The notes under the pieces were generated by a model that ran no database searches, was not told where the DNA came from, and saw only the letters and a list, made by a program, of their open reading frames with translations. Shown here piece after piece: positions 9,151 to 58,750 of a DNA stretch of 64,000 bases. This DNA is from Heptranchias perlo (taxonomy: Eukaryota): assembly GCF_035084215.1 (NCBI RefSeq), contig NC_090351.1, positions 28,582,001 through 28,646,000 on the forward strand, given 5' to 3'. Each line of letters begins with the position of its first letter. Within the stretch, counting starts at the first letter, position 1. A program made the translations under genes and the position numbers.

Positions 9151-9376
9151 CTTGCAACATGGCATGATATCCACTCTTTTATTCCTTTTATCTACTTATC
9201 TTCTTTTTTTCTTCCTCTCTGAAAAGTGCCTTTGCATTCCAGGATGATCCTGGAGTAGAAAACAGTTTTTGGCAAAGGAGACCAGTGCCCGATAGTGCTT
9301 GATGTGGTCCAGCCAGATCTGGCGATGAACGGCTGAACCAACAACACCAAGAGCAGAAAATCTGGCCATTTAAAAA

Positions 9377-11085
9377 TTTTTTTTAATTCGTTCATGGGAT
9401 GTGGGTGTCGCTGGCGAGGCCAGCATTTATTGCCCATCCCTAATTGCCCCTTGAGAAGGTGGTGGTGAGCCGCCTTCTTGAACCGCTGCAATCCGTGTGG
9501 TGACAGTTCTCCCACTGTGCTGTTAGGAAGGGAGTTCCAGGATTTTGACCCAGCGACGATGAAGGAACGGCGATATATTTCCAAGTCGGGATGGTGTGTG
9601 ACTTGGAGGGGAATGTGCAGGAGGTGTTGTTCCCATGTACCTGCTGCTCTTGTCCTTCTAGGTGGTAGAGGTCGCGGGTTTGGGAGGTGCTGTCGAAGAA
9701 GCCTTGGCGAGTTGCTGCAGTGCATCCTGTGGATGGTACACACTGCAGCCACAGTGCGCCGGTGGAGAAGGGAGTGAATGTTTAGGATGGTGGATGGGGT
9801 GCCAATCAAGCGGGCTGCTTTATCTTGGATGGTGTCGAGCTTCTTGAGTGTTGTTGGAGCTGCACTCATCCAGGCAAGTGGAGAGTATTCCATCACACTC
9901 CTGACTTGTGCCTTGTAGATGGTGGAAAGGCTTTGGGGAGTCAGGAGGTGAGTCACTCGCCACAGAATACCCAGCCTCTGACCTGCTCTCATAGCCACAG
10001 TATTTATATGGCTAGTCCAGTTAAGTTTCTGGTCAATGGTGACCCCCAGGATGTTGATGGTGGGGGATTCGGCGATGGTAATGCCGTTGAATGTCAAGGG
10101 GAAGTGGTTAGACTCTCTCTTGTTGGAGATGGTCATTGCCTGGCACTTATCTGGCGCGAATGTTACTTGCCACTTATGAGCCCAAGCCTGGATGTTGCCC
10201 AGGTCTTGCTGCATGTGGGCTCGGACTGCTTCATTATTTGAGGGGTTGCGAATGGAACTGAACACTGTGCAGTCATCAGCGAACATCCCCATTTCTGACC
10301 TTATGATGGAGGGAAGGTCATTGATGAAGCAGCTGAAGATGGTTGGGCCTAGGACACTGCCCTGAGGAACTCCTGCAGCAACGTCCTGGGGCTGAGATGA
10401 TTGGCCTCCAACAACCACTACCATCTTCCTTTGTGCCAGGTATGACTCCAGCCACTGGAAAGTTTTCTCTCCGATTCTCGTTGACTTCAATTTGACTAGG
10501 GCTCCTTGGTGCCACACTCGGTCAAATGCTGCCTTGATGTCAAGGGCAGTCACTCTCACCTCACCTCTGGAATTCAGCTCTTTTGTCCATGTTTGGACCA
10601 AGGCTGTAATGAGGTCTGGAGCCGAGTGGTCCTGGCGGAACCCAAACTGAGCATCGGTGAGCAGGTTATTGGTGAGTAAGTGCCGCTTGATAGCACTGTC
10701 GACGACACCTTCCATCACTTTGCTGATGATTGAGAGTAGACTGATGGGGCGGTAATTGGCCGGATTGGATTTGTCCTGCTTTTTGTGGACAGGACATACC
10801 TGGGCAATTTTCCACATTGTCGGGTGGATGCCAGTGTTGTAGCTGTACTGGAACAGCTTGGCTAGAGGCGCAGCTAGTTCTGGAGCACAAGTCTTCAGCA
10901 CTACAGCTGGGATGTTGTCGGGGCCCATAGCCTTTGCTGTATCCAGTGCACTCAGCCGTTTCTTGATATCACGTGGAGTGAATCGAATTGGCTGAAGACT
11001 GGCTTCCGTGATGGTGGGGATATCGGGAGGAGGCCGAGATGGATCATCCACTCGGCAATTCTGGCTGAAGATGGTTGCAAACGCT
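9377..11085 (-). mobile_element. young 5'-truncated LINE, CR1/L2-group RT (family A)
   Basis: long open RT frame: ANYRPISLLSI, QFGFR, LDIKAAFDRVWH, GVPQGSVLGP, FADDCT; A-rich 3' tail. Confidence 0.95.
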
Positions 11086-12262
11086 TGCTGTATGTGGGAC
11101 CTTGCTGTGCTCAAATTGGCTGCCTCATTTGCCTACATTACAACATGACTGAACTTTGAAAGTATTTCAATGGCTGTGAAGCACTTTGGGACATCCTGTG
11201 GAAGTGAAAGACATTATACAAGTGCAAGTTTTGTCTTAAAGATCTTTTTGAATATCCATTAATCCCACCTCTCCACTCTCAGTTTCCTAACAGCGATTTA
11301 ACTTTTGGTATTACACGAGCATTCCCGTGTTATCCTGTGCTCGAAGATCATGACCTTTTCTATGGCTCACAAATAAGCTTAAAAAAATCCTCAACGAGCC
11401 AATCTTTCACTGAAATTGTGGCATTTCTGGTTCAGTCTTATTGGTTGATTAGTAATAAAATACCATAGTGCTCCAACCACCATTCTAGTACTGAATTAAA
11501 GTTACATCTAAGTCAGAATTCTAATAAATTATCTTATAAAATAATTAGCAGTTGATACTTTTAATGTATTGTATTGATACAGAAACATGATCCTCAGAAT
11601 CCCTCTCAATTAAACTATTAATTATAAAACTTACAGGAATTTGTCAGGCAGCACCCATAGAAAAGCAACAGGATTGTTACATTCTTGAAAATGACCGTCA
11701 TGGTTGAGATTCAAACTCTTTCCTTTTTTATAAGCACTGGGACAGTGAAGACCAAAGTTGTACGAGATGGTTCCACTCCTCCTCTGTTTGCTCTTTCATT
11801 GTTTATGTAACCGGTGTTTTTGCTCATTCCAATATTTTAGTTAATAAATAACAAGATATGTTCTAAAGCTGCATTGGCACAAAAATGCACCAAACTTCGT
11901 CTCTGATGCAATATCTTCAACACTGCAGGTATCAGTAAACTATTTTGTCATATTATGTGGGTGATTTTATTGTACGGTGCGGCATACAACTGCACTACAC
12001 CAAAATATAACTTACTGAATGGATCAACAGTTATCTATTGGAGCTGTTTAGGTTGAGTGTTCTTTGTATCTGCCATACCACAGCGGAACCAGAGGGTTTA
12101 AACCACATAACATATGGAACCTATATCACGTTATTTGAATATGTACTGGGTTCTACTGCCGTAAAACAGTGTGTTATTTCTCAGTAAAACCATTCCATGG
12201 TAGAAGTTTGCAAACACCCCTCCTTTTATCATGTAATACAAAGCCACATGATAAATATTCAC

Positions 12263-15374: not shown

Positions 15375-16820
15375 CATAGGAACAGGAGTAGGCCAGTCAC
15401 TCACACCTGTTCAGACATTCGATTAAATCATGGCTGATCTGCATCTTTATTCCATTTACCCACCTTGGTTCCATTTAAAAAAAATCTATCAATCTCAACT
15501 TTGAAATTTTCTATTGACTCAGCCTCAACAGCTTTTTTTGCAGCGGGGGGGGGCGGTTCCAGATTTCCACTACCCTTTGTGTGAAGAAGTGCTTCCTGAC
15601 ATCACCCCTAAATGGCTAGCTCTAACTTTAAGGTTATATAATAATAGAATGATACAGCACAGACAGAGGCCATTTGGCCCATCATGCCTGTGCCGGCTCT
15701 TTGAAAGAGCTATCCAATTGGTCTCATTCCCCTGCCCTTTCCCCGTAGCCCTGTAAACGTTTCCCCTTCAAGTATTTATCAGATTCCCTTTTGAAAGTTA
15801 TTACTGAATTTGCTTCCACCGCCTTCTCAGGCAGTGCATTCCAAATCATAACAACTCACTACGTAAAATAATTTCTCATCTCACCTCTGGTTCTTTCGCC
15901 AATTACCTTAATTACCAATGTCCTCTGGTTACCAACCCTTCTGCCACTGGGAACAGTTTCTCCTTATTTATTCTATCAAACCCTTCATGGTTTTGAACAC
16001 CTGTTAAATTTCCCCTTAACCTTCTCTAGTCTCTCCACATTACTGAAGTCCCAGAGCCCTGGTACCATTCTTGTAAATCTCCTCTGCACCCTCTCTAAGG
16101 CCTTAGCATCCTTCCTAAAGTGTGGTGCCCACAATTGGACACGATATTCCCACTGGGGCCTAACCACTAATCAGTGAACCTCTCTCGCCTCTAGCTTTCA
16201 ACTTCTTTCTCTTGCTATTGCGATCTTGTCACTCTTGGCTTTATCAATGCTACTAACATCAGTGCTCCTCTTGTCCCTTCTAAGCAGCAAATACACCACT
16301 ACACGCACTTCCTCCTCCACGCACTATGCTGAAATCAAGAATCACCAGTCACACGATCTCCTACTCCACCTCATCTTTCCTAGGGCGTCAAAATTGTGCA
16401 ACTCCATATGTTGCTCAATCTTCCTCCTCCAATCTATAGGGCGTTAAAACCAAAAAAAGTTTCATTTAAGCACTAAACTGTCTGAGGTGCCATCTATGCC
16501 ACCTTGTTCTGCACTTCCCCACCAGAGGAAATAGTTTCTATCTACCCTATCAAATCCTTTAAACATCTTAAAACACCTCAATTAGGTCACCTTAATCTTC
16601 CATACTTAAGGGAATACAAGCCTAGTCCATGCAACCTGTTTTCATAATTTAACCCTCAAATCCCCACTATCATTCTGGTGAATCTGCACTACACCCCCTC
16701 CATCATCAATATATCCTTCCTAAGGTGCGATGCCCAAAACTGAATGCGGTACTCCAGATGCAGTCTAACCGGGGCTTTATACGACCGTAGCATAATCTCC
16801 ATCCCTTTGTACTCCAGCCT
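15375..16820 (-). mobile_element. cluster of CR1 3' fragments
   Basis: several CR1 3'-end and RT C-terminal fragments (EYRVQLWAPHFRKD). Confidence 0.75.
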
Positions 16821-21723: not shown

Positions 21724-22264
21724 CTGCAATTAAAAATTAAAATATGTTAGCTGATTTGTATGTGTAAAGTCACAAAGTTCCAATTTACAGACATGGTCAG
21801 TAATATTATTAATGGTTAATAATAAAACAATGTTGGAGACACTCAGCAAGCAACAAATTTCAGCATCAACCTCATAATTAGTCTAGCCCTTGGAGGAGAG
21901 CACTGCATCAATGGATGAGATCAGAGACACCACAAAAATTGTTTTTCCTTCCCCCTCTCCCACATATTCTCCTTTTATCCCCATGTCCAGCTTCCGCTGG
22001 CCGATGGGAGAACCAAGGAATCAAATTTCTCTCATCTGGAAAGAGAACAACTATAAGTTGAACTATTTCACATCTAAGGAAAACAACACAGGGGATAAAT
22101 AACTTTTGGGGGTGGGGGTGGGGGGCAGGGTGTGAGATAGAAGACAGGACCATCATACACCAAATGCAATAGGGAATTTCTTGCTTTGGAGAGTACAGAA
22201 ATGAAACTAACTTTGTTTAACCTATTTAATTTATAGAATGTTACTGAAGAATTAAACAACTCAC

Positions 22265-22657
22265 CACTTAAGAAGGTTTCCAGACAAAAGAGTTTGACTT
22301 TCTTCTGCCTTTCTATGACATGTGGGGTAGCAGTTCCATTTGCACAGGGTCCTGACCAGTACACCTTACACTGACACAGGCGAATGGCATAGATTGCATG
22401 ACCACTCACTTCCAGGATCAGTCCTCGGTCCATCACATCCAGTAGGCGGTTTGTGAAGAGACGTTGCTTTTCATTTGAGATATGCTCTGTTCCAGGAAAT
22501 TTCACTTGTTCAAGGGAAACCGGACCAAACAACTCCTCCTGGTTTGGCATTGGTCCCAAATCCCCATAAAAGAGACGGCATCCCTGTGGATTGCTGATGT
22601 TTAAGGTTGGTCCCAACTCTTTACCTCGGTACTGGAACTGGATTTCGAGGTCTGTCA
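22265..22657 (-). CDS. IRF6: IRF6 coding exon 6 (IAD/SMIR domain)
   Basis: (M)[15 protein letters not shown]...[21 protein letters not shown]...[18 protein letters not shown]...LFCLETFLS; tatag|TG, AGTG|gtgag; 393 bp. Confidence 0.98.
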
Positions 22658-23690
22658 CTATACAGAATTTGGGGGGAAAAAAGTATGAATCAAAGAGTTC
22701 TATATTTTAAAGCTCATGAAATTCAAGAGAACTCTTTCACAATATTTTTATAATTTGAAAGATGATTAGATCCACACCCACAGTGAATGCGTGAATATAC
22801 ATTTACTTAATTGAAATTTTTTAAAGCAGATTCCTCTTTACTGCAGGTTTTTGTTGTCAATCTACCTTCATTTATGCTCTTTAACCTTAACATGTGTACG
22901 CAGTTTATCGTTTTGTCTCAGTCAGATGCAAACGTTCACAGCTTGCTTTAAAATTCCCATTAAACTGCACATTTTACACCAATATATTTTCCCCCAATAT
23001 ACTTTCATCTTAATAATTTCCTGGGGAATCAGCTGGGCTCAGATAGCAACGTTCTCAGCTCAAAGTCAGAACATTCTGCCTTCAAGGCTCTCTTTAGGAA
23101 TGTGATGATATAATCTAGGGTGACATTCCAGGGCAGTAGTGTGAAGAATTGCATTGTGGGTGGTGCTGTCTGTCAGATTATATATTAAACCAACACATCT
23201 GCCAGTTCAGGTGTATTAAGGATCCCATGGCAATATGGAAAGAAGAGCAGGGAGTTCTCTTGGTATCTTGGATAACATTCTTCCCTCAACTGTAACCACT
23301 AACTTAAAAACAGGTTAACAAGTCATTTATCTCATTGTTGTTTGTGGGAATTCACTGTGCACAAAGTGTCTGTTGCATTTTCTGACATAACAGTCATCAC
23401 ATCTTCAAGTCATTCATTGTACATCCAGCTCGTTGAGATTTCTAAGATGTGATAAGGCGCTATATATATATAAAGCAAGTCTTTCTAATAAGGATATTGT
23501 GGTAAACCTAGGTTGACTATTAGTATTTAGCATGTTTTTAAGCAAGATGATAGAAAATGCAATTAACTGTGAATGAGGCGAAGGGTTGCAACGAAGTTCA
23601 CTTATTAGGGCAGGAGGGGAAACAGTATGGATATAGAATGACAGGTCAATCTTGGATTCGGTTTTGGCAAGCAACAGGTTTTTTGCTTAC

Positions 23691-26169: not shown

Positions 26170-28300
26170 CCACTGTGCTAAATGGGATAGATTCAGAACA
26201 GATCTAGCAGCTTAAAACTGGGCATCCATGAGGCGCTGTGGGCCATCAGCAGAAGCAGAATTGTATTCCAGCACAATCTGTAACCTCATGGCCCAGCATA
26301 TTCCTCACTCTACCATTACCAACAAGCCAGGGGATCAACTCTGGTTCAATGAGGAGCAGCACCAGGTGTACCTAAAAATGAGGTGCCAACCTGGTGAAGC
26401 TACAACACAGCTCTACATGCATGCTAAACAGCAGAAGCAACATGCTATAGACAGAGCTAAGCAATTCCACAACCAACGGATCAGATCAAAGCTCTGCAGT
26501 CCTGCCATATCCAGTCGTGAATGGTGGTGGACAATTAAACAACTAACGGGAGGAGGAGGCGGCTCTGTGAACCCCATCCTCAATGATGGCAGAGTCCAGC
26601 ACGTGAGTGCAAACGACAAGGCTGAAGCATTTGCAACCATCTTCAGCCAGAAGTGCCGAGTGGATGATCCATCTCGGCCTCCTTCCGATATCCCCACCAT
26701 CGCAGAAGCCAGTCTTCAGCCAATTCAATTCACTCCACATGATATCAAGAAACGACCAAGTGCACTGGATACAACAAAGGATATGGGCCCCGAAAAAATC
26801 ACGGCTGTAGTGCTGAAGACTTGTACTCCAGAACTAGCTGCGCCTCTAGCCAAACTGTTCCAGTGCAGTTACAACACTGGCATCTACCCGACAATATGGA
26901 AAATTGCCCAGGTATGTCCTGTCCACAAAAAGCAGGACAAATCCAATCCGGCCAATTACCGCCCCATCAGTCTACTCTCAATCATCAGCAAAGTGATGGA
27001 AGGTGTCGTCGACAGTGCTATCAAGCGACACTTACTCACTAATGCTCAGTTTGGGTTACACCAGGACCACTCGGCTCCAGGCCTCATTGTAGCCTTGGTC
27101 CAAACATGGACAAAAGAGCTGAATTCCAGAGGTGAGGTGAGAGTGACTGCCTTTGACATCAAAGCAGCATTTGACCGAGCGTGGCACCAAGGAGCCCTAG
27201 TCAAATTGAAGTCAATGGGAATCAGTGGGAAAACTCTCCAGTGGCTGGAGTCATACCTGGCACAAAGGAAGATGGTCGTGCTGCTGAAGGCCAATCATCT
27301 CAGCCCCAGGACATTGCTGCAGTAGTTTCTCAGGGTAGTGTCCTAGGCCCAACCATCTTCAGCTGCTTCATCAATGACCTTCCCTCCATCATAAGGTCAG
27401 AAATGGGGATGTTCGCTGATGATTGCACAGTGTTTAGTTCCATTCAAAACCCCTCAGATAATGAAGCAGTCTGTGCCTGCATGCAACAAGACCTGGACAA
27501 CATCCAGGCTTGGGCTGATAAGTGACAAGTAACATCCGCGCCAGACAAGTGCCAGGCAATGACCATCTCCAACAAGAGAGAGTCTAACCACCTCCCCTTG
27601 ACATTCAACGGCATTACCATCACCGAATCTCCCACCATCAACATCCTGGAGGTCACCATTGACCAGAAACTTAACTGGACCAGCCACATAAATAATGTGA
27701 CTACAAGAGCAGGTCAGAGGCTGGGTATTCTGCGGCCAGGGACTCACCTCCTGACTCCCCAAAGCGTTTCCACCATCTACAAGGCACAAGTCAGGAGTGT
27801 GAGGGAATACTCTCCACTTGCTTGGATAAGTGCAGCTCCAACAACACTCAAGAAGCTCCTCACCTTCCAGAACAAAGCAGCCCGCTTGATTGGTATCCCG
27901 TCCACCACCCTAAACATTCACTCCTTTCACCACCGTGGCTGCAGTGTGTACCATCTACAGGATGCACTGCAGCAACTTGCCAAGGCTTCTTCGACAGCAT
28001 CTCCCAAACCCACGACCTCTACCACCTAGAAGGACAAGGGCAGCAGGCACATGGGAACAACACCACCTGCACGTTCCCCTCCAAGTCACACACCATCCGC
28101 ACTTGGAACTATCTCACCGTTCCTTCGTCACTGGGTCAAAATCCTGGAACTCCCTACCTAACAGCACTGTGGGAGAACCTTCATCACACGGACTGCAGCG
28201 GTTCAAGTAGGGGACTCACCACCACCTTCTCAAGGGCAATTAGGGATGGGCAATAAATGCTGGCCTTGCCAGCGACGCCCACATCCCATGAACGAATTTT
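26170..28300 (+). mobile_element. family A LINE in an IRF6 intron
   Basis: highly similar to 9377-11085 with frameshifts and stops; same 3' end. Confidence 0.95.
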
Positions 28301-28838
28301 AAAACAAATTTGTAGAAACAAAATTATTTCTGGTTCTGCACCAATTTTTAAAATCAAACAACAAAATGGGAAAAGTCCCCACAAGGAATCTTATCCTATC
28401 TAAAAATGTATGCTGAATGAGATTACTAAGCATTAATCTAATTAATTACTTTTATTTTGTTCTGTTCATTAAATTACGGACCAAGTCTCAGCATTAAGCA
28501 TATCCTGATGCACCACCTTCAGTAAAGCTGCCTCCATTCTGCCTCGACCTTAGAAGAGCACTCCCACTGCACCAATATCATTTTCTCCATTTCACACACC
28601 AGCAATATTCTGTCCTCATCATGAGGCTGCCAAATTGTACGCGCTAGGAAATGCCAGACCCATTTCACTCTGGATGCTTATAGTCAACAGAGAACCAACT
28701 GGGTTGACTTCAAACACAGATTCTAGAGATTTTTTAAAAAGTATTTTATTCCACTTCACCATTAATGTTTTATTACAAGATCCTAATAGTAAAATAATAG
28801 ATTAGATTCACACCGATAATAGCTCTGGGTTCACTTAC

Positions 28839-36020: not shown

Positions 36021-36175
36021 ATTGAAACAGGCTGGAATGGGTGCTGTGCAATGTGCGACCCAAACTGTCAATCGGCCATTTGCGCTCTTCGTTCATCTAC
36101 ATAAGAATGTAAGAAATAGGAGCAGGAGTAGGCCACATGGCCCCTCGAGCCTGCTCCGCCATTGAATCAAATCAT

Positions 36176-50476: not shown

Positions 50477-51373
50477 GTGAGTGCGAGTCTGCTCTTTTGC
50501 CTGTAGCCCTTATAACCAACTGCAATCAACCAGAAATTATGAATGATTTGATTAATGGCAAATAAATGATGCGCTTCGTCGAGACGTTAAGCGGAGGTCT
50601 TGTCCGCCTGTCTGGTGGATGTTAAAGCTGTAATGTGAAGGCGATGGATTTGGAAAGACGCCTTCTAAAACCAGTCTAAAACCAAATTTGTGATTGACAT
50701 AATGTCCCGTTGATTTTAGTTGAATCAAATGGAAGGGGGCGGGGTCAGATGGAAAGAAAAGATCTCCAGAATGTTGAGAGGACACTTTTAAACCTGAAAA
50801 CGAAAACACTGCCCTTCAGTGGCCATTCGTTCTCTTCTGCAAATATGAAGTTGGACTATTAGTTTCATAAATGTTGCTAGCAAACTTGTACATGGTTCAT
50901 ACCTGTGGAGAAACGGTCAGTGATTTTGTAATGGTTTCTGGATGTATTGCTCAGTTCATCCTGAATTTGACTAAAAAAGATCTATATGTGGTTTTCTATG
51001 TGAGTTGAGCGGGATATTAGGATTCAAAAAATGTCAAAAATCAGAACCGAATAAATTTACAAGAAGGGAATGCAAATTTCGAATCAATTTAAACTTCAGT
51101 TTATGTTAAAAAAAACACTGTGGAAGAATTATCTGCAAAATATGTAATCGCCTATTGGGTAATAGACGAATGCAGAGAGAATTCCTCCGAACAGGTTAAA
51201 CTGAATTCCATTCTAACCTGTGGAAAGTATTTGGTACTTGTGTTAGAATGGTCAGCTGTCAATGATGCAATATAAGAAACTCGACAGGTTGTAAACCTAT
51301 CGCAGGACATGTTTTGATTCAGTCGGTAATTTTGATTCAGTCGGTAAAGAGCACCGATTTGTATTTCTTTCAG

Positions 51374-51523
51374 GATAACACCATCGATTTCTTGGAATAT
51401 GTTGCGGCACTCAATCTGGTTCTAAGAGGCAATCTGGAGCACAAATTGAAATGGACTTTCAAAGTTTATGATAAAGATGGAAACGGATCCATCGATAAAA
51501 CAGAGCTGCTGGAGATTGTGGAG
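51374..51523 (+). CDS. GUCA1B: GCAP2-type exon 2
   Basis: ttcag|[50 protein letters not shown]|gtctgt; EF2/EF3. Confidence 0.95.
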
Positions 51524-51605
51524 GTCTGTGTCTTCTTTATCTCTTTTCTTTCTGAATTGACATGTCCCTGGTGTCCGAATTCTGACACTTGTTCTTGTTA
51601 TGCAG

Positions 51606-51720
51606 TCTATTTACAGATTAAAGAAGGCTTGCCGCAAAGAATCGGAAGATGGGAATCTGCTCCTGACTCCAGAAGAGGTTGTAGAAAGAATATTTCAGTT
51701 AGTGGACGAAAATGGAGATG
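51606..51720 (+). CDS. GUCA1B: GCAP2-type exon 3
   Basis: tgcag|[39 protein letters not shown]|gtaggt; follows an 82-bp intron. Confidence 0.95.
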
Positions 51721-52558
51721 GTAGGTATAAACTTTGCCAGGTCACCGCCATTAACTCCAGCCCCCGCCCTGGTCACTGTCTCAGGCTGACCCAAACTGTT
51801 CGCAACCTTGGCATTCTGTTCCACCAGAGCTGAGTGCCAGACTCAATTTCTCCATCACAAAGATCACATACTTCCACCTCCCTAACCCCCACCTCCCTGC
51901 CATTGCTCACTTCCATCCAACCTCAGCCCACCTGCCACTAAAATCATCATGTATGCCTTTGTCACCTCCAGACTCCATTATTGGAATACTTTCCTGGGCT
52001 GGTTTCCTTCTATGAAGTTCAGCTCATCTAAAACTCTGCTGTTCCTATCCTATCCCGCGCCAAGTTCCACTTGTCCAACTCCCCAGAATGGCCTGGAAGC
52101 CTGATATCTTAAAAATGTTATACAGTTAAGAATATAAATATGGATGGACAGTGCCTGGGTGCCCCAGGAGTGGGTTAAGAGGAGGCCAGCAGAAGGAGAT
52201 AAGAACCGGATTGTATTTTAAATTTTAGAGGGGGGGGGGACGAGGTTGTAAAGTGACAAATCATTAAAGGAAAATAAATAAATTTAAAATTAGTGTAAAG
52301 AAAAAAGAAAATTTAAAACCTTAAGAAAAACCGAGATGACAGAGTTTCTGAAAATTTCCAGAAACCTTTTGAAACTCCACCTAGTGGTAGAAGTGTGCAG
52401 CTGCAGTGTGACCGATAACTTAATCGGGAAATCCTATCAAGGTGCCAACTAGAGGTAAGAAAACATAGAGATGCCCAAATAAGGAGTGCGCAACATACCT
52501 AGCAAATGTAACATATTATAGATAGATAAGTGTGACAACCCGTAACCCACACATCCAT

Positions 52559-53299
52559 GGCCCAGAAATTGCTGGAGTGGGGCACCTCGCAGTGAGCACC
52601 ATGGATTGGATCTTTCCCCTCACCCTTCAGATCGTATTATTTTTGCGCCACAAATTGCTGGAAATGTGAATTGATAATGGCACGGCGATGTCATCCGGGC
52701 ATCTATTACTTCGTGAACGTCAAGTCTTAACCAATGAAATTTAATGATAAAGAAACAGAGGGAACGACAGAAAAGGAAATAGGGTGAATTAGAGTCAAAT
52801 CAGGTATAGAAAGAGAAATAAAGATAGAGAAAGAAAGATTGGATTAAGGGAGAGAGAAAAAAGAGACAGAAAGGAAAAGTAAGAAACAAATTTTTAAAAT
52901 TAAAATTTTAATAACCTCTCGGAACAATTTACTACCTGCAGGAGTGAGACTCCACAGTTTCAATTGTTCCCTTTCTTGGCCTCCAAGGTTGAGTTTCACA
53001 TCAGGACCATAAATCACACCATTACAGGGTCTTTACTACATGAATTAGCAGCCTTAAATGTTTGCAGCAAGATTTATTCGTATTTACGCTGCAAATCCAG
53101 CAATTTCTTGAAACTCACCGGGAGGTTGATGGCAAGCTCCTGTTTTCGCGAGGCTAACAACGGAGCCAAATTGTCCAGCAATTTATGGTGATTCGCAACT
53201 CACAGTGTACCTCTTCCTCGCCACAAATTGAAATTTTTAATGCACTAATAACGGCCGGCGCCATGAACAGGCCATGATTTTTCCAGCAATTTCTGGGGC
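52559..53299. mobile_element. non-autonomous TIR element (PIF/Harbinger-like) in GCAP2 intron 3
   Basis: TIR GGCCCAGAAATTGCTGGA vs TCCAGCAATTTCTGGGGC (17/18); flanks cat/aat. Confidence 0.75.
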
Positions 53300-53394
53300 A
53301 ATATCACTCTTTAATTTAGCCATGTAAGTATGCTTTGAGTTATCTTATATTGTTTGTGTATCTGTAGCTTCATTGGTGTTTTTCCTTTTTGCAG

Positions 53395-53522
53395 GTCACC
53401 TATCCTTGGATGAGTTTATCGATGGAGCGCGGAGAGACAAGTGGGTGATGAAGATGCTGCAGATGGATATGAATCCAGGCGGCTGGATTAACGAGCAGAG
53501 ACGCAAAAGCGCTTTATTTTAA
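53395..53522 (+). CDS. GUCA1B: GCAP2-type exon 4
   Basis: ttgcag|(G)[41 protein letters not shown]; GCAP2-type C-terminus; total 591 bp = 196 aa. Confidence 0.95.
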
Positions 53523-54181: not shown

Positions 54182-54238
54182 AATAAATATGTACAAATGT
54201 TTACAGAATAAACAAATACGACACTTTGTAATAATAAA
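54182..54238 (+). terminator. candidate polyadenylation signals of the GCAP2 gene
   Basis: three clustered AATAAA hexamers ~660-715 bp after the stop codon. Confidence 0.55.
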
Positions 54239-54377
54239 TGAACTTCATTGTCATTAGTATATTAGAATTCATAGTTTATGTGTGTGACTTCAGGAGTGTA
54301 TAGGAACAGGAGTAGGCCATTCAGTCCCTCGAGCCTGTTCCAATATTCAATTAGATCAGTGATGGCCAACCCCAGGC

Positions 54378-55094
54378 ATGCGCGCCACAAGTTTCACGCC
54401 TCTCTCCAGAGAGAGGCATGTCTCGGCACGCGGCCGGTCGAATGCGGGCAGATGGTGGCAGTTGCTGGCCTGGGATGTGAAGGACACTCAGCTCCGAGTG
54501 CATTACTTGATTAGCGAGCTGTACTCCTCAGAGGCCAAGCTCCACGGGATCCAGGTGGAGGCCAAGGTTCTTGACCGATCATTCCTCCCAGCCATCAGGG
54601 TGCAGGACGAGCTGTTCCCCAGCTGCGGCCTAGGCTGGGGCCTGAGCTCCCAGCAGCGGTGGGGGGACATCATCAAACGTACCTTCCAGCTGTGTGGGGT
54701 GAACCAAGAGCAGGTATTGTCCCCGCTCGCCGAGAACCTTTATCGGGGGTTCGGCAGCACTAGGAACTGGGAAGTGTTTGCCGATGTCAGGGACATTCTG
54801 ACTCACATGGCAGTCATCTCCAACTTTGACCATTGCCTGGAGCAGACTCTAGCCAACTGCAAGCTGTGGCAGCATTTTGACTATGTGTTGACATCGGACG
54901 ACATTGGGGCTGTCAAGCCAGATCCCCGGATCTTTGTCAAGGCAGTGGGCATCGCCCAGGTGGAGCCCAAGCAGGCCACACATGTAGGAGACGATGTGTG
55001 GAAGGACTATTTGGTGGCCAGGACTATGGAGAGCTACCTGATCTGCAGAGAGGAGGAGGAGCCTGTCGGGGTGAAGGGACTGGTTCCCAGGTGA
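54378..55094 (+). pseudogene. HDHD3: HDHD3-like HAD hydrolase copy inside the hAT element (open frame, decayed)
   Basis: LLAWDVKDT (motif I), AVISNFD (motif II), KPDPRIF (III), HVGDDxxxDY (IV); apparent ~8-aa deletion before AVISNFD; R->W/H/C changes typical of CpG decay; start codon lies in transposon subterminal DNA. Confidence 0.85.
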
Positions 55095-55239
55095 GATTTG
55101 GCTTATCCCTTAGTGGGGGGGAGTTAGCTGTTGTGAGTTGGTGAGTTAGTGTAAATTTGACTGATATACAGAGGTGGGGGGGGGGGGGGTCCTGTCTCCC
55201 TCCCTCCCCAGAATGCGCCACCTGTGAGCAACCACTCAA

Positions 55240-56625
55240 TGCGGGCGTCGCTGGCAAGGCCGGCATTTATTGCCCATCCCTAATTGCCCTTGAGAAGGTG
55301 GTGGTTCGCTGCTTTCTTGAACCACTGCAGTCCGTGTGGTGAAGGTTCTCCCACAGTGCTGTTAGGCAGGGAGCTCCAGGGTTTTGACCCAGCAACGATG
55401 AAGGAACGGCGATATATTTCCAAGTCGGGATTGTGTGTGACTTGGAGGGGAATGTGCAGGTGGTATTGTTCCCATGTGCCTGCTGCCCTTGTCCTTCTAG
55501 GTGGTAGAGGTCGTGTGTTTGGGAGGTGCTGTTGAAGAAGCCTTGGCGAGTTGCTGCAGTGCATCCTGTGGATGGTACACACTGCAGCCACTGTGCGCCG
55601 GTGGTGGAGGGAGTGAATGTTTAGGGTGGTGAATGGGGTGCCAATCAAGTGGGCTGCTTTGTTGTGGATGCTGTTGAGCTTCTTGAGTGTTGTTGGAGCT
55701 GCACTCATCCAGGCAAGTGGAGAGTATTCCATCACACTCCTGACTCCTGCCTTGTAGATGGTGAAAAGACTTTGGGGAGTCAGGAGGTGAGTTACTCGCC
55801 ACAGAATACCCAGCCTCTGACCTGCTCTTGTAGCCACAGTATTTATGTGGCTGGTCCAGTTAAGTTTCTGGTCAATGGTGACCCCCAGGATGTTGATGGT
55901 GGGGGATTCAGCGATGGTAATGTCGTTGAATGTCAAGGGGAGGTGGTTAGATTCTCTCTTGTTGGAGATGGTCATTGCCTGGCACTTGTCTGGCCCGAAT
56001 GTTACTTGCCACTTATCAGCCCAAGCCTGGATGTTGTCCAGATCTTGCTGCATGCGGGCACAGACTGCTTCATTATCTGAGGGGTTGCGAATGGAACTGA
56101 ACACTGTGCAATCATCAGCGAACATCCCCATTTCTGACCTTATGATGGAGGGAAGGTCATTGATGAAGCAGCTGAAGATGGTTGGGCCTAGGCACTGACC
56201 TGAGGAACTCCTGCAGCAATGTCCTGGGGCTGAGATGATTGGCCTCCAACAACCACTACCATCTTCCTTTGTGCTAGGTATGACTCCAGCCACTGGAGAG
56301 TTTTCTCTCTGATTCCCATTGACTTCAATTTTACTAGGGCTCCTTGGTGCCACACTTGGTCAAATGCTGCCTTGATGTCAAGTGCAGTTACTCTCATCTC
56401 ACCTCTGGAATTCGGCTATTTTGACCAAGGCTGTAAGGTCTGGAGCAGAGTGGTCCTGGCAGAACCCAAACTGAGCATCGGTGACCAGGTTATTGGCGAG
56501 TAAGTGCCACGTGATAGCACTGTCGACGACACCTTCCATCACTTTGTTAATGATTGAGAGTAGACTGATGGGGCAGTAATTGGCCAGATTGGATTTGTCC
56601 TGATTTTTGTGAACAGGACGTACCT
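55240..56625 (-). mobile_element. family A LINE nested in the hAT element
   Basis: RT motifs LDIKAAFDQVWH and FADDCT. Confidence 0.93.
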
Positions 56626-57238
56626 AGATCTCTCATCTGTTGACATTATTTTCAAAAAGGAGTCTAATAATTAACATTTTGCTGTGGTGTTTTGGTGATA
56701 TTTTATTCTGAAACAAACATTTTCCTTCATTTGACCAGTTTCACTTGTGTTCAGTATTAAAGAATACCATTTTCCACATCACACTCTTCACCTCAGTGTC
56801 CTGTACTGGTGAACATATGTGAGTTGCAGTGACACTAAGGTGAGATAACTGTGTTTGTCTCGGATCAAGCCAGCAGTTTCTTGTGCTGAACGGAATGGAA
56901 TGGAAGAATAAGAGGAAGATAAACGTTATTGATAAAAGCACCTTATGACATCTCTCCGTAATGTCTGAGCTTCACATACACAATGAAGTACACTGAGGTG
57001 TAGCAGCAAGCAGGTTCAAAAGCCACACTAAGTATGTAAGATTGCCATGTTTAATTTTTAGACCTAGTGTCCATTACATAATTATTAGCCCTATAACAAT
57101 TGTTGGAGTTATTATTATTTGTTTTATTCAGCTAAGATTGTGAAGTTTAAAAAAATAGTATTGTTCATGACAAGCGGCACGCCTGCACATTCTAGTTTCA
57201 CAACGTGACACTCCTTTGCAAAAAGTTGACCATCACTG

Positions 57239-58750
57239 AATTAGATCATGGCTGATTTGTACCTCAACTCCATTTACCTGCCTTGTTCCATATCCCTTGA
57301 TACCCTTACCTAACAAAAATCTATCAATCTCAGTCTTGGAAATTTTAATTGACCCAGCATTCATAGCCTTTTGGGGGAGTGAGTTCCAGATTTCCACTGC
57401 CTTTTGTGTGAAAAAATACTTCCTGATTTCTCTCCTAAATGGTTTAGCTCTAAATTTAAGATTATGCCCTCCTGTTCTGGATTGTACCACCAGAGGAAAT
57501 AGTTTCTCTGTATCTATCCTTTTGAATCCCTTTATCATCTTAAACATCTCAACTGCCTGAACTCAAGGGAATACAAGCAAAAGTTATGCAACCTGTTCTC
57601 ATAATTTAACCTTTCAAGCCCTAGTAGCATTCTGGTAAGTCTGCGTTGTTTTTTTTTTATTCGTTCATGGGATGTGGGCGTGGCTGGCGAGGCCAGCATT
57701 TATTGCCCATTCCTAATTGCCCTTGAGAAGGTGGTGGTGAGCCGCTTCCTTGAACCGTTGCAGTCCATGTGGTGAAGGTTCTCCCACAGTGCTGTTAGGA
57801 AGGGAGTTCCAGGATTTTAACCCAGCGACAATGAAGGAACGGTGATATATTTCCAAGTTGGGATGGTGTGTGACTTGGAGGGGAACGTGCAGGTGGTATT
57901 GTTCCCATGTGCCTGCTGCTCTTGTCCTTGTAGGTGGTAGAGGTCGCAGGTTTGGGAGGTGCTGTCGAAGAAGCCTTGGCGAGTTGCTGCAGTGCATCCT
58001 GTGGATGGTACACACTGCAGCCACAGTGCGCCGGTGGTGAAGGGAGTGAATGTTTAGGGTGGTGGATGGGGTGCCAATCAAGCGGGCTGCTTTGTCCTGG
58101 ATGGAGTCGAGCTTCTTGAGTGTTGTTGGAGCTACACTCATCCAGGCAAGTGGAGAGTATTCCATCACACTCCTGACTTGTGCCTTGTAGATGGTGGAAA
58201 GACTTTGGGGAGTCAGGAGGTGAGTCCCTCCAAGGCCAGTATATCTTTCCTGAGGTTTGGTGCCCAAAACTGAATGCAGTGCTCCAGCTGGGGTCTGATC
58301 CAGGCTCTGTACGACTGAAGCATCAATTCTTCACTTTTGAATTCCAGCCCCCTTAAGATAAAGACCAACATTCCATTAGTTTTTTAAAATACATTTTGTA
58401 CCTGTGCACTAGCTTTTATCAATTTATATACATAGACACCCAAATCCCTTTGCTCCTCCTCTGCTCCTAATCTCTCACCAATAAGAAAATATTCTGATTT
58501 GTCTTTCTCAGATCCAAAGTGGATAACCTCACACTTCCCCACATTGAACTCAATTTCCCACAGTTTTGCCCATTCACTCTATGTCCCTTTGTAACTTCCT
58601 GCTCCCATCTACAACTTACTGTGCCTCCCAACTTAGTGTCATCCACAAACTTGGATATACAACTCTCTATTCCTTCATCCAAGTCATCAATATATATGGT
58701 GAGAAGCTGAGGCCCCAGTGCAGATTCCTGGGGAACACCACTTATCACAT
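57239..58750 (-). mobile_element. CR1 fragment (3' tip at 54296-54356) split by the hAT element and by a nested LINE at 57649-58225
   Basis: FKMIKGFKRIDTEKLFPL..., FVDDTKLGG; sequence resumes across both insertions. Confidence 0.85.
57649..58225 (-). mobile_element. family A LINE 3' fragment
   Basis: near-identical to 9380-9955, with poly-T tail. Confidence 0.93.

Follow-up and report, generated by a model that had tools for sequence, protein, structure and literature searches.

Animal genomes harbor Pack-TIRs, that is, DNA transposons that carry host sequence between arms bearing terminal inverted repeats (TIRs). In the portions of the survey on which we draw, 370 such elements are recorded from 100 animal genomes, 208 of them hAT elements; just four of the 370 are multicopy, cargo length has a median of 224 bp, and the elephant shark, as the one cartilaginous fish included, has a count of 0 (PMC8277862). 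Here we analyze a 64,000-nucleotide stretch of DNA from the shark Heptranchias perlo (assembly GCF_035084215.1, contig NC_090351.1, forward-strand positions 28,582,001 to 28,646,000; hereinafter the window), in which positions 54349-57246 were read in an initial annotation, made from the letters alone, as a hAT transposon that had captured and moved a host HDHD3 gene. The element itself is confirmed, and we consider the following reading likely: a non-autonomous hAT that bears most of the housekeeping gene HDHD3, very probably exists in several copies and holds a cargo in neutral decay.

Several described systems offer close comparisons. Pack-hAT-N8_XT of Xenopus tropicalis is likewise a non-autonomous hAT with host DNA, namely CAPSL's 5′ untranslated region (UTR), between its arms, and it shares with the Heptranchias element an 8-bp target site duplication (TSD), a distant parent and, as is very probable here, several copies; distinct TSDs for the copies are not seen in our case, and its cargo is 291 bp of UTR, whereas here a cargo of about 1.2-1.4 kb spans nearly the whole coding region and the host is a shark (PMC8277862). 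Ssk-FB4 of Drosophila melanogaster is also an almost whole protein-coding gene taken up by a TIR element and amplified (PMC8277862). However, it is young, polymorphic, translated and MULE-like, while the present cargo is about 10% diverged, truncated at the C-terminus and decaying between hAT ends. The hobo_AC elements of Anolis are vertebrate hATs that acquire genomic DNA, including fragments of long interspersed elements (LINEs), and still transpose, but they belong to the hobo clade and, in the sections of that report drawn on here, their cargo consists of transposable-element fragments and anonymous DNA with no host coding region described (PMC3014272). A literature search, with most subscription papers, Repbase and Dfam outside its scope, returned no report of an HDHD3-carrying transposon or of a shark Pack-TIR. 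The claim of the initial annotation that gene capture by TIR elements is rarely documented in vertebrates is overstated in light of the 370 animal Pack-TIRs with their 208 hATs; what is uncommon in the present locus is its multicopy status, for which the surveyed set offers four cases, and its near-whole coding cargo (PMC8277862).

The left TSD (54349-54356, + strand), which has TA at positions 4-5 in the manner of Buster-type sites, is exactly matched by the right one (57239-57246, +), and immediately within them lie 14-bp TIRs, the left at 54357-54370 (+) and the right at 57225-57238 (−), that are identical at 13 of 14 positions. This is the sole structure in the 64-kb window combining an 8-bp TSD with 14-bp TIRs at up to one mismatch, and none arose in 20 Markov-simulated windows. 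The left arm (54371-54460, +) is CpG-rich and has GGCACGC-type motifs, whether exact or decayed, at four places (54375, 54393, 54415 and 54425), its border with the cargo being placed only to about 54437-54460; the right arm (57002-57224, +), whose left border is inferred, has one exact motif at 57176 and a decayed one at 57207. The exact heptamer GGCACGC occurs just twice in the window, at 54425 and 57176, hence once per arm, with both instances on the + strand as direct rather than inverted repeats. An imperfect 26-nt palindrome (85%) is also seen at 54395-54420 in the left arm, 40 nt from the start of the cargo; one might speculate that it is a hairpin or fragile site of the kind featuring in the model outlined in PMC8277862.

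The element interrupts a CR1-like 3′ end fragment, the left half of which lies at 54300-54348 and the right half at 57247-57547 (both −). Once the element and a single TSD are taken out, what remains on either side joins into an unbroken CR1-like 3′ piece, to which intact copies in the window can be aligned at 15376 and 24327 across the junction, and at 36116 up to the junction; moreover, other CR1 copies in public contigs jump from about 54340 to 57239. This clean target site indicates that the element was inserted as a unit by a transposase. Thus, the perfect 8-bp TSD, the 14-bp TIRs, the subterminal motifs at both ends and the CR1 fragment split by the insertion are all as first noted. An assembly artefact is ruled out by an independent contig matching 54723-54999 with one difference, though this contig may come from the assembly's own sample. 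At 54983 and 56659 every mapped contig differs from the window, including one that is otherwise identical to it at 54983; these differences may represent an allele, another individual or an assembly error.

An 8-bp TSD, short TIRs beginning YARNG and subterminal motifs repeated in both arms are features of hAT elements and are all present here, and the earlier assignment to this superfamily stands, with the element being non-autonomous: as had been stated, no transposase is present within it, neither a six-frame reading nor a profile of related elements having recovered a remnant. The six-frame reading likewise yielded nothing recognizable in 55085-55245 and 56620-57240. Among characterized families, the ends resemble those of the lizard hAT-HT1_AC, which we take to be the same as OposCharlie1/OC1. 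In the report describing it, hAT-HT1_AC is placed near the Charlie elements, and against the consensus printed for it and its miniature inverted-repeat transposable element (MITE), the first 16 nt of our element agree at 15/16 positions on the left and 14/16 on the right, while the TSD shares 4 of the 6 positions that are fixed in NTCTAGAN (PMC3014272); however, our element has neither transposase nor internal homology to it. The single insertion site also conforms to the TSD rule given for the Buster group, nnnTAnnn (PMC3517528).

A left-end pattern search provided further relatives in the form of 55 metagenome loci (L001-L055), which are decayed TIR elements of 1.6-2.5 kb with hAT-HT1-like ends and central-TA TSDs, and which presumably represent host animal DNA within metagenome assemblies; one of them, L013, looks like a chance bacterial match. 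In fifteen of the 55, the two ends occur together with a TSD mismatched at no more than one position, several of these being the same insertion in different assemblies. They show the same layout of subterminal motifs as the window element, and 14 of the 15, again with some insertions counted twice, have TA at TSD positions 4-5. Because fragments from two of them gave no Pfam match at E 0.1, their link to a hAT transposase is drawn from the ends and TSDs. A profile of the 15 aligns to the first 48 nt alone (E 0.002), and the element and these 15 are alike only in the first ~45 nt, at ~78%, far from the 90-95% identity reported between OC1 families (PMC3621081). With similarity confined to this stretch, we do not assign the element to hAT-HT1/OC1; judging from its termini, it appears to behave as a Buster/Charlie-type hAT.

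Between the two arms lies sequence that is not of transposable-element origin and whose parental copy can be identified. To trace it, contigs from four of seven listed public runs, all of one sample, were mapped on 54200-57400. The protein closest to the 238-codon frame of the cargo is P0002, a shark HDHD3 with 78% identity that its source names as Heptranchias perlo (the structure of human HDHD3 being 3K1Z). The captured HDHD3 coding sequence (54461-55089, +) corresponds to about residues 4-223 of the 239 in the parent, is about 10% diverged, and has in-frame deletions of 21, 6 and 3 nt; relative to P0002, the copy is without the first 3 residues, the last ~16 and a further 10 internally, and 33 substitutions are private to it. 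Thus, of the near-complete HDHD3 coding region first proposed, the HAD domains and the affinity to shark HDHD3 are confirmed, while the deletions and the loss of the last ~16 residues qualify its completeness. Across the 629 nt of 54461-55089, a 1135-nt RNA-like contig (record 25) has 64 other letters and 30 gap letters; what its three extra segments (21, 6 and 3 nt) encode is precisely the set of P0002 residues absent from the copy, which identifies this contig as the parent. Twelve residues are common to the copy and P0002 but absent from 10 other cartilaginous fishes, which places the capture within that lineage. The proteins P0001 and P0002 are on contigs of 42.9 Mb and 37.6 Mb, respectively, and the window has a single HDHD3 match; hence parent and copy are distant from each other, if both come from one assembly. 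At 54452-54454 an ATG occurs 10 nt ahead of the first codon matching the parent, which requires 12; possibly this ATG is the original start, since shifted out of frame.

The homology extends beyond the coding region. RNA-like HDHD3 contigs of the same depths (144.5 and 184.2) also map to 56659-56693, and the parent DNA records 6/14, which carry the 7-nt insertion of the RNA-like contigs, span 56629-57001 and are then followed by 186 non-fitting letters. The shared depths and insertion identify 56629-57001 (+) as HDHD3 3′ UTR or downstream DNA, with an ATTAAA at 56756 and a 3′ border without an A-tract. In the right-arm region from bin 56982 the contig depth is 4-6 fold higher, as would be expected of an arm common to cargo-free elements, and records 6/14 no longer fit after 57001. 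The segment 55090-55238 (+) is probably the parent 3′ UTR following the loss of the last ~16 codons; 22 nt of it are accounted for, in that 56 nt of bin 55056-55162 are covered in both RNA-like runs and 34 of these are coding, leaving 22 parent-like nt in 55090-55162. Consequently, the segments 55095-55235 and 56626-57170, earlier regarded as unique DNA, are mostly identified, as HDHD3 3′ UTR or downstream DNA, right arm and at least 22 nt of parent sequence. The interval 55091-55211, with a donor-like GT where the HDHD3 homology breaks and a pyrimidine tract and AG at 55210-55211, could on its letters also be read as a 121-nt intron.

Most of the HDHD3-like DNA in the public contigs is neither the parent nor this copy. 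At 54672, 54680 and 54712, up to 7 non-window contigs have the parent letter, in both DNA runs, whereas the features private to the parent, at 54590 and 54601 and as insertions at 55025 and 56679, are confined to 1-2 contigs with a small share of the depth (29 of 182.5 at 54590 in X3, and 12 of 207.6 for the 7-nt insertion at 56679). A further candidate, 54600/54601 as a derived allele common to the copies, was dropped, as several other sharks have Met there and the parent changed later. The non-parent records 7/15 and 8/16 (50 and 34 other letters) have about 89-90% identity to the window sequence. Within 56840-57001 they overlap one another as well as parent records 6/14, and they extend as far as 57126-57162, where the parent no longer fits. 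At least two non-parent sequences thus cross the cargo/right-arm junction at about 57001, which lends weight to the earlier suggestion of a possibly multicopy element; we regard it as very probably a multicopy Pack-hAT. The sisters are about as distant from the window copy as the parent is, in keeping with a burst of amplification soon after capture. In X3, contigs that have the parent letter at 55085 continue for 44 nt in each direction and span the 55089/90 break, while the RNA-like contig ends after 5 nt; this suggests that the C-terminal loss is shared by the sisters and predates the amplification, though an allele of this locus could mimic the pattern. Shorter proteins that sister copies might encode were also looked for, with 1 candidate and no match as the outcome.

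The 238-codon frame (54378-55094, +) comprises 27 codons of arm or junction DNA followed by the decayed HDHD3 with its HAD domains. As first described, it is still open and has its ATG within transposon DNA. This ATG at 54378 falls in the first subterminal motif, and 49 of 55 related left ends have a C where the window has a T, marking the start codon as a product of CpG decay. Polarized with 10 outgroups, 33 changes fall on the copy branch against 3 on the parent branch, with 2 ambiguous (p=2e-7). Columns invariant in 15 homologues were not spared (11 of 63 changed as against 22 of 148 other columns; p=0.68), and the 37 listed of the 64 substitutions are distributed over codon positions 1, 2 and 3 as 13, 10 and 14. 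The HAD domain is also incomplete, having lost a core segment of 7 residues along with about 16 residues at the C-terminus. The test for purifying selection on the copy came out against it, and the substitutions instead show neutral decay. The copy keeps D33, T37, S148/N149, K180, D205 and D210, which we take to be HAD motifs I-IV. With several copies, and a reader apt to pick out open frames, the open frame lies within chance; it looks like an accidental by-product of the CpG-decay ATG and a chance absence of stops, and the hint in the initial annotation that the open chimeric frame is of consequence is not supported. Nor is read-through from GCAP2 to be expected, as three AATAAA signals (54182, 54207 and 54233) lie between the GCAP2-like gene and the element. 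In two of three RNA-like runs the parent-type contig stands alone at every listed coding-site difference, which says nothing on expression. Hence, the copy is probably not a working gene and the cargo a pseudogene, and the presence of its protein in NCBI and UniRef calls for caution, since an accidental frame there stands recorded as a protein.

From these observations we propose the following history. A non-autonomous hAT with Buster/Charlie-type ends would have acquired about 1.2-1.4 kb of the host HDHD3 locus, comprising nearly all of the coding DNA, the 3′ UTR and probably some downstream DNA, most likely via template switching while the element was being repaired or replicated. Since both arms were kept, it would have remained movable by a transposase supplied in trans and been amplified to several loci soon after capture; the present copy would have inserted into the CR1 fragment downstream of GCAP2, with its cargo then decaying neutrally. 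Several points weigh against this account. All three internal deletions are in frame and no stop is present, the lack of a stop by itself arising in 0.10-0.23 of neutral simulations. Upstream of 54461, the parent transcript has 72-87 nt that cannot be fitted to the window, and 10% decay could conceal a short poly-A tail. The parent-allele DNA contigs appear to run unbroken over 54546-54807, and HDHD3 is presumably a single coding exon, making intron loss uninformative as to DNA versus RNA. Neither a cargo-free consensus element nor a partner transposase was found. No sister TIR with a different TSD was seen, the longest sister pieces listed ending at 57126-57162 and the element end bins being swamped by CR1 in the contig mapping. 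Finally, all reads behind the contig evidence are from one sample, and the estimate of roughly four to eight HDHD3-like sequences, parent included, has to be read in the knowledge that alleles and 30-nt overlaps may push the number of contigs up and that depth is not copy number.

The alternative that fares best is an RNA route, wherein an HDHD3 mRNA or cDNA was inserted or copied into an existing hAT MITE and the composite then transposed. The cargo is intronless and begins at the first codons, most of its identified part is exon sequence, and the unfitting parent leader upstream of 54461 resembles the situation in a 5′-truncated retrocopy; a similar doubt attaches to ARF6-MER20 in the survey as drawn on here (PMC8277862). 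However, there is no A-tract at the 3′ border of the cargo near 57001, runs of five or more A occurring only at 56654, 57149 and 57220. No repeat of 7 nt or longer that might be a TSD around the cargo is shared by 54400-54470 and 56985-57180, though 10% decay could hide a short one. Further, the poly-A-type signal ATTAAA lies 245 nt inside the cargo, while the homology to parent DNA runs on to 57001. The RNA-like contigs themselves end at about 56695 and 56729, leaving 56768-56981 uncovered while the parent DNA continues, which fits a poly-A site near 56780; as they come from one study and the argument turns on an uncovered stretch, we do not count this observation. The lack of an A-tract and of a cargo repeat, together with the internal ATTAAA, favors capture at the DNA level and leaves the RNA route unlikely. 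Likewise, the combination that the initial annotation named as contrary to its reading, a poly-A tail and TSD belonging to HDHD3 itself with no other cargo-bearing copy, was looked for and is not what we find.

A second alternative dispenses with amplification, holding that a resident MITE was filled in place during gap repair to give a single-copy Pack-TIR, with the other HDHD3-like sequences being unrelated duplicates or alleles. In-place gap filling is the commonest animal route in the survey's account (PMC8277862), and no sister TSD is seen among the listed pieces. Yet the window has no parent, and the two distinct non-parent sequences that share the transition at ~57001 are about 10% diverged, too far for alleles, making this alternative improbable in comparison with a multicopy Pack-hAT. 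Very improbable, too, is that a hAT with ends like those of a horizontally transferring family amplified a near-complete enzyme gene of which at least one member is transcribed and translated, be it this copy, which may use its CpG-decay start, or a less damaged sister; were it true, the expressed family would parallel Ssk-FB4 in a vertebrate, as a new gene family arising through DNA transposition. As for the copy itself being a functional chimeric HAD hydrolase gene under selection, perhaps expressed by read-through from GCAP2, its frame that remains open through three deletions without a stop, its catalytic-type residues and its database records speak for it, but the unspared invariant residues, the 11-fold excess of changes on the copy branch, the lost core segment and C-terminus, the CpG-decay ATG, the AATAAA signals preceding the element and simple arithmetic, by which six given residues would be kept by chance at about 0.33 with 17% change per site, make it highly improbable.

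The element further contains a LINE piece (55239-56625, −) covering the C-terminal part of the reverse transcriptase and 89-93% identical to other copies in the window. It is 5′-truncated, about 28 nt are missing at the 3′ end, the tail among them, and no TSD flanks it; insertion followed by deletion is the simplest reading of how it arrived. Thus, the LINE noted earlier is present, while its being a later insertion is, given the missing tail and TSD, a deduction. No joint skipping the LINE is found among the 15 listed of 2,704 joints. At 56659 the parent-letter contigs all have an end within 31 letters of the site, which sister copies without the LINE would be expected to show; we take this as a weak hint. 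The same LINE family is found at 9371-11086, 26625-28314 and 57650-58230, with 89-95% identity and intact T-tails on the + strand, and a LINE frame at 9192-11132 is open for 646 codons. Upstream of the element, the GCAP2-like gene (51266-53522, +) has an EF-hand exon, and its last exon matches PDB 1JBA. About 30 kb from it lies an interferon-regulatory-factor exon (22074-22706, −; Pfam IRF-3, E 4e-46), which we presume to be IRF6-like.

Since the copy seems to be a pseudogene, the importance of this locus is in genome evolution rather than in a new function. In the surveyed material, the known multicopy cargo is usually short and non-coding (PMC8277862), whereas the present element looks like a vertebrate multicopy Pack-TIR with an almost whole coding region. 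With several equally old copies and a known parent, both the capture mechanism, in terms of breakpoints, microhomology and DNA versus RNA intermediates, and the fate of the duplicates become testable. More generally, such a case would show that hAT elements are able to duplicate genes in sharks.

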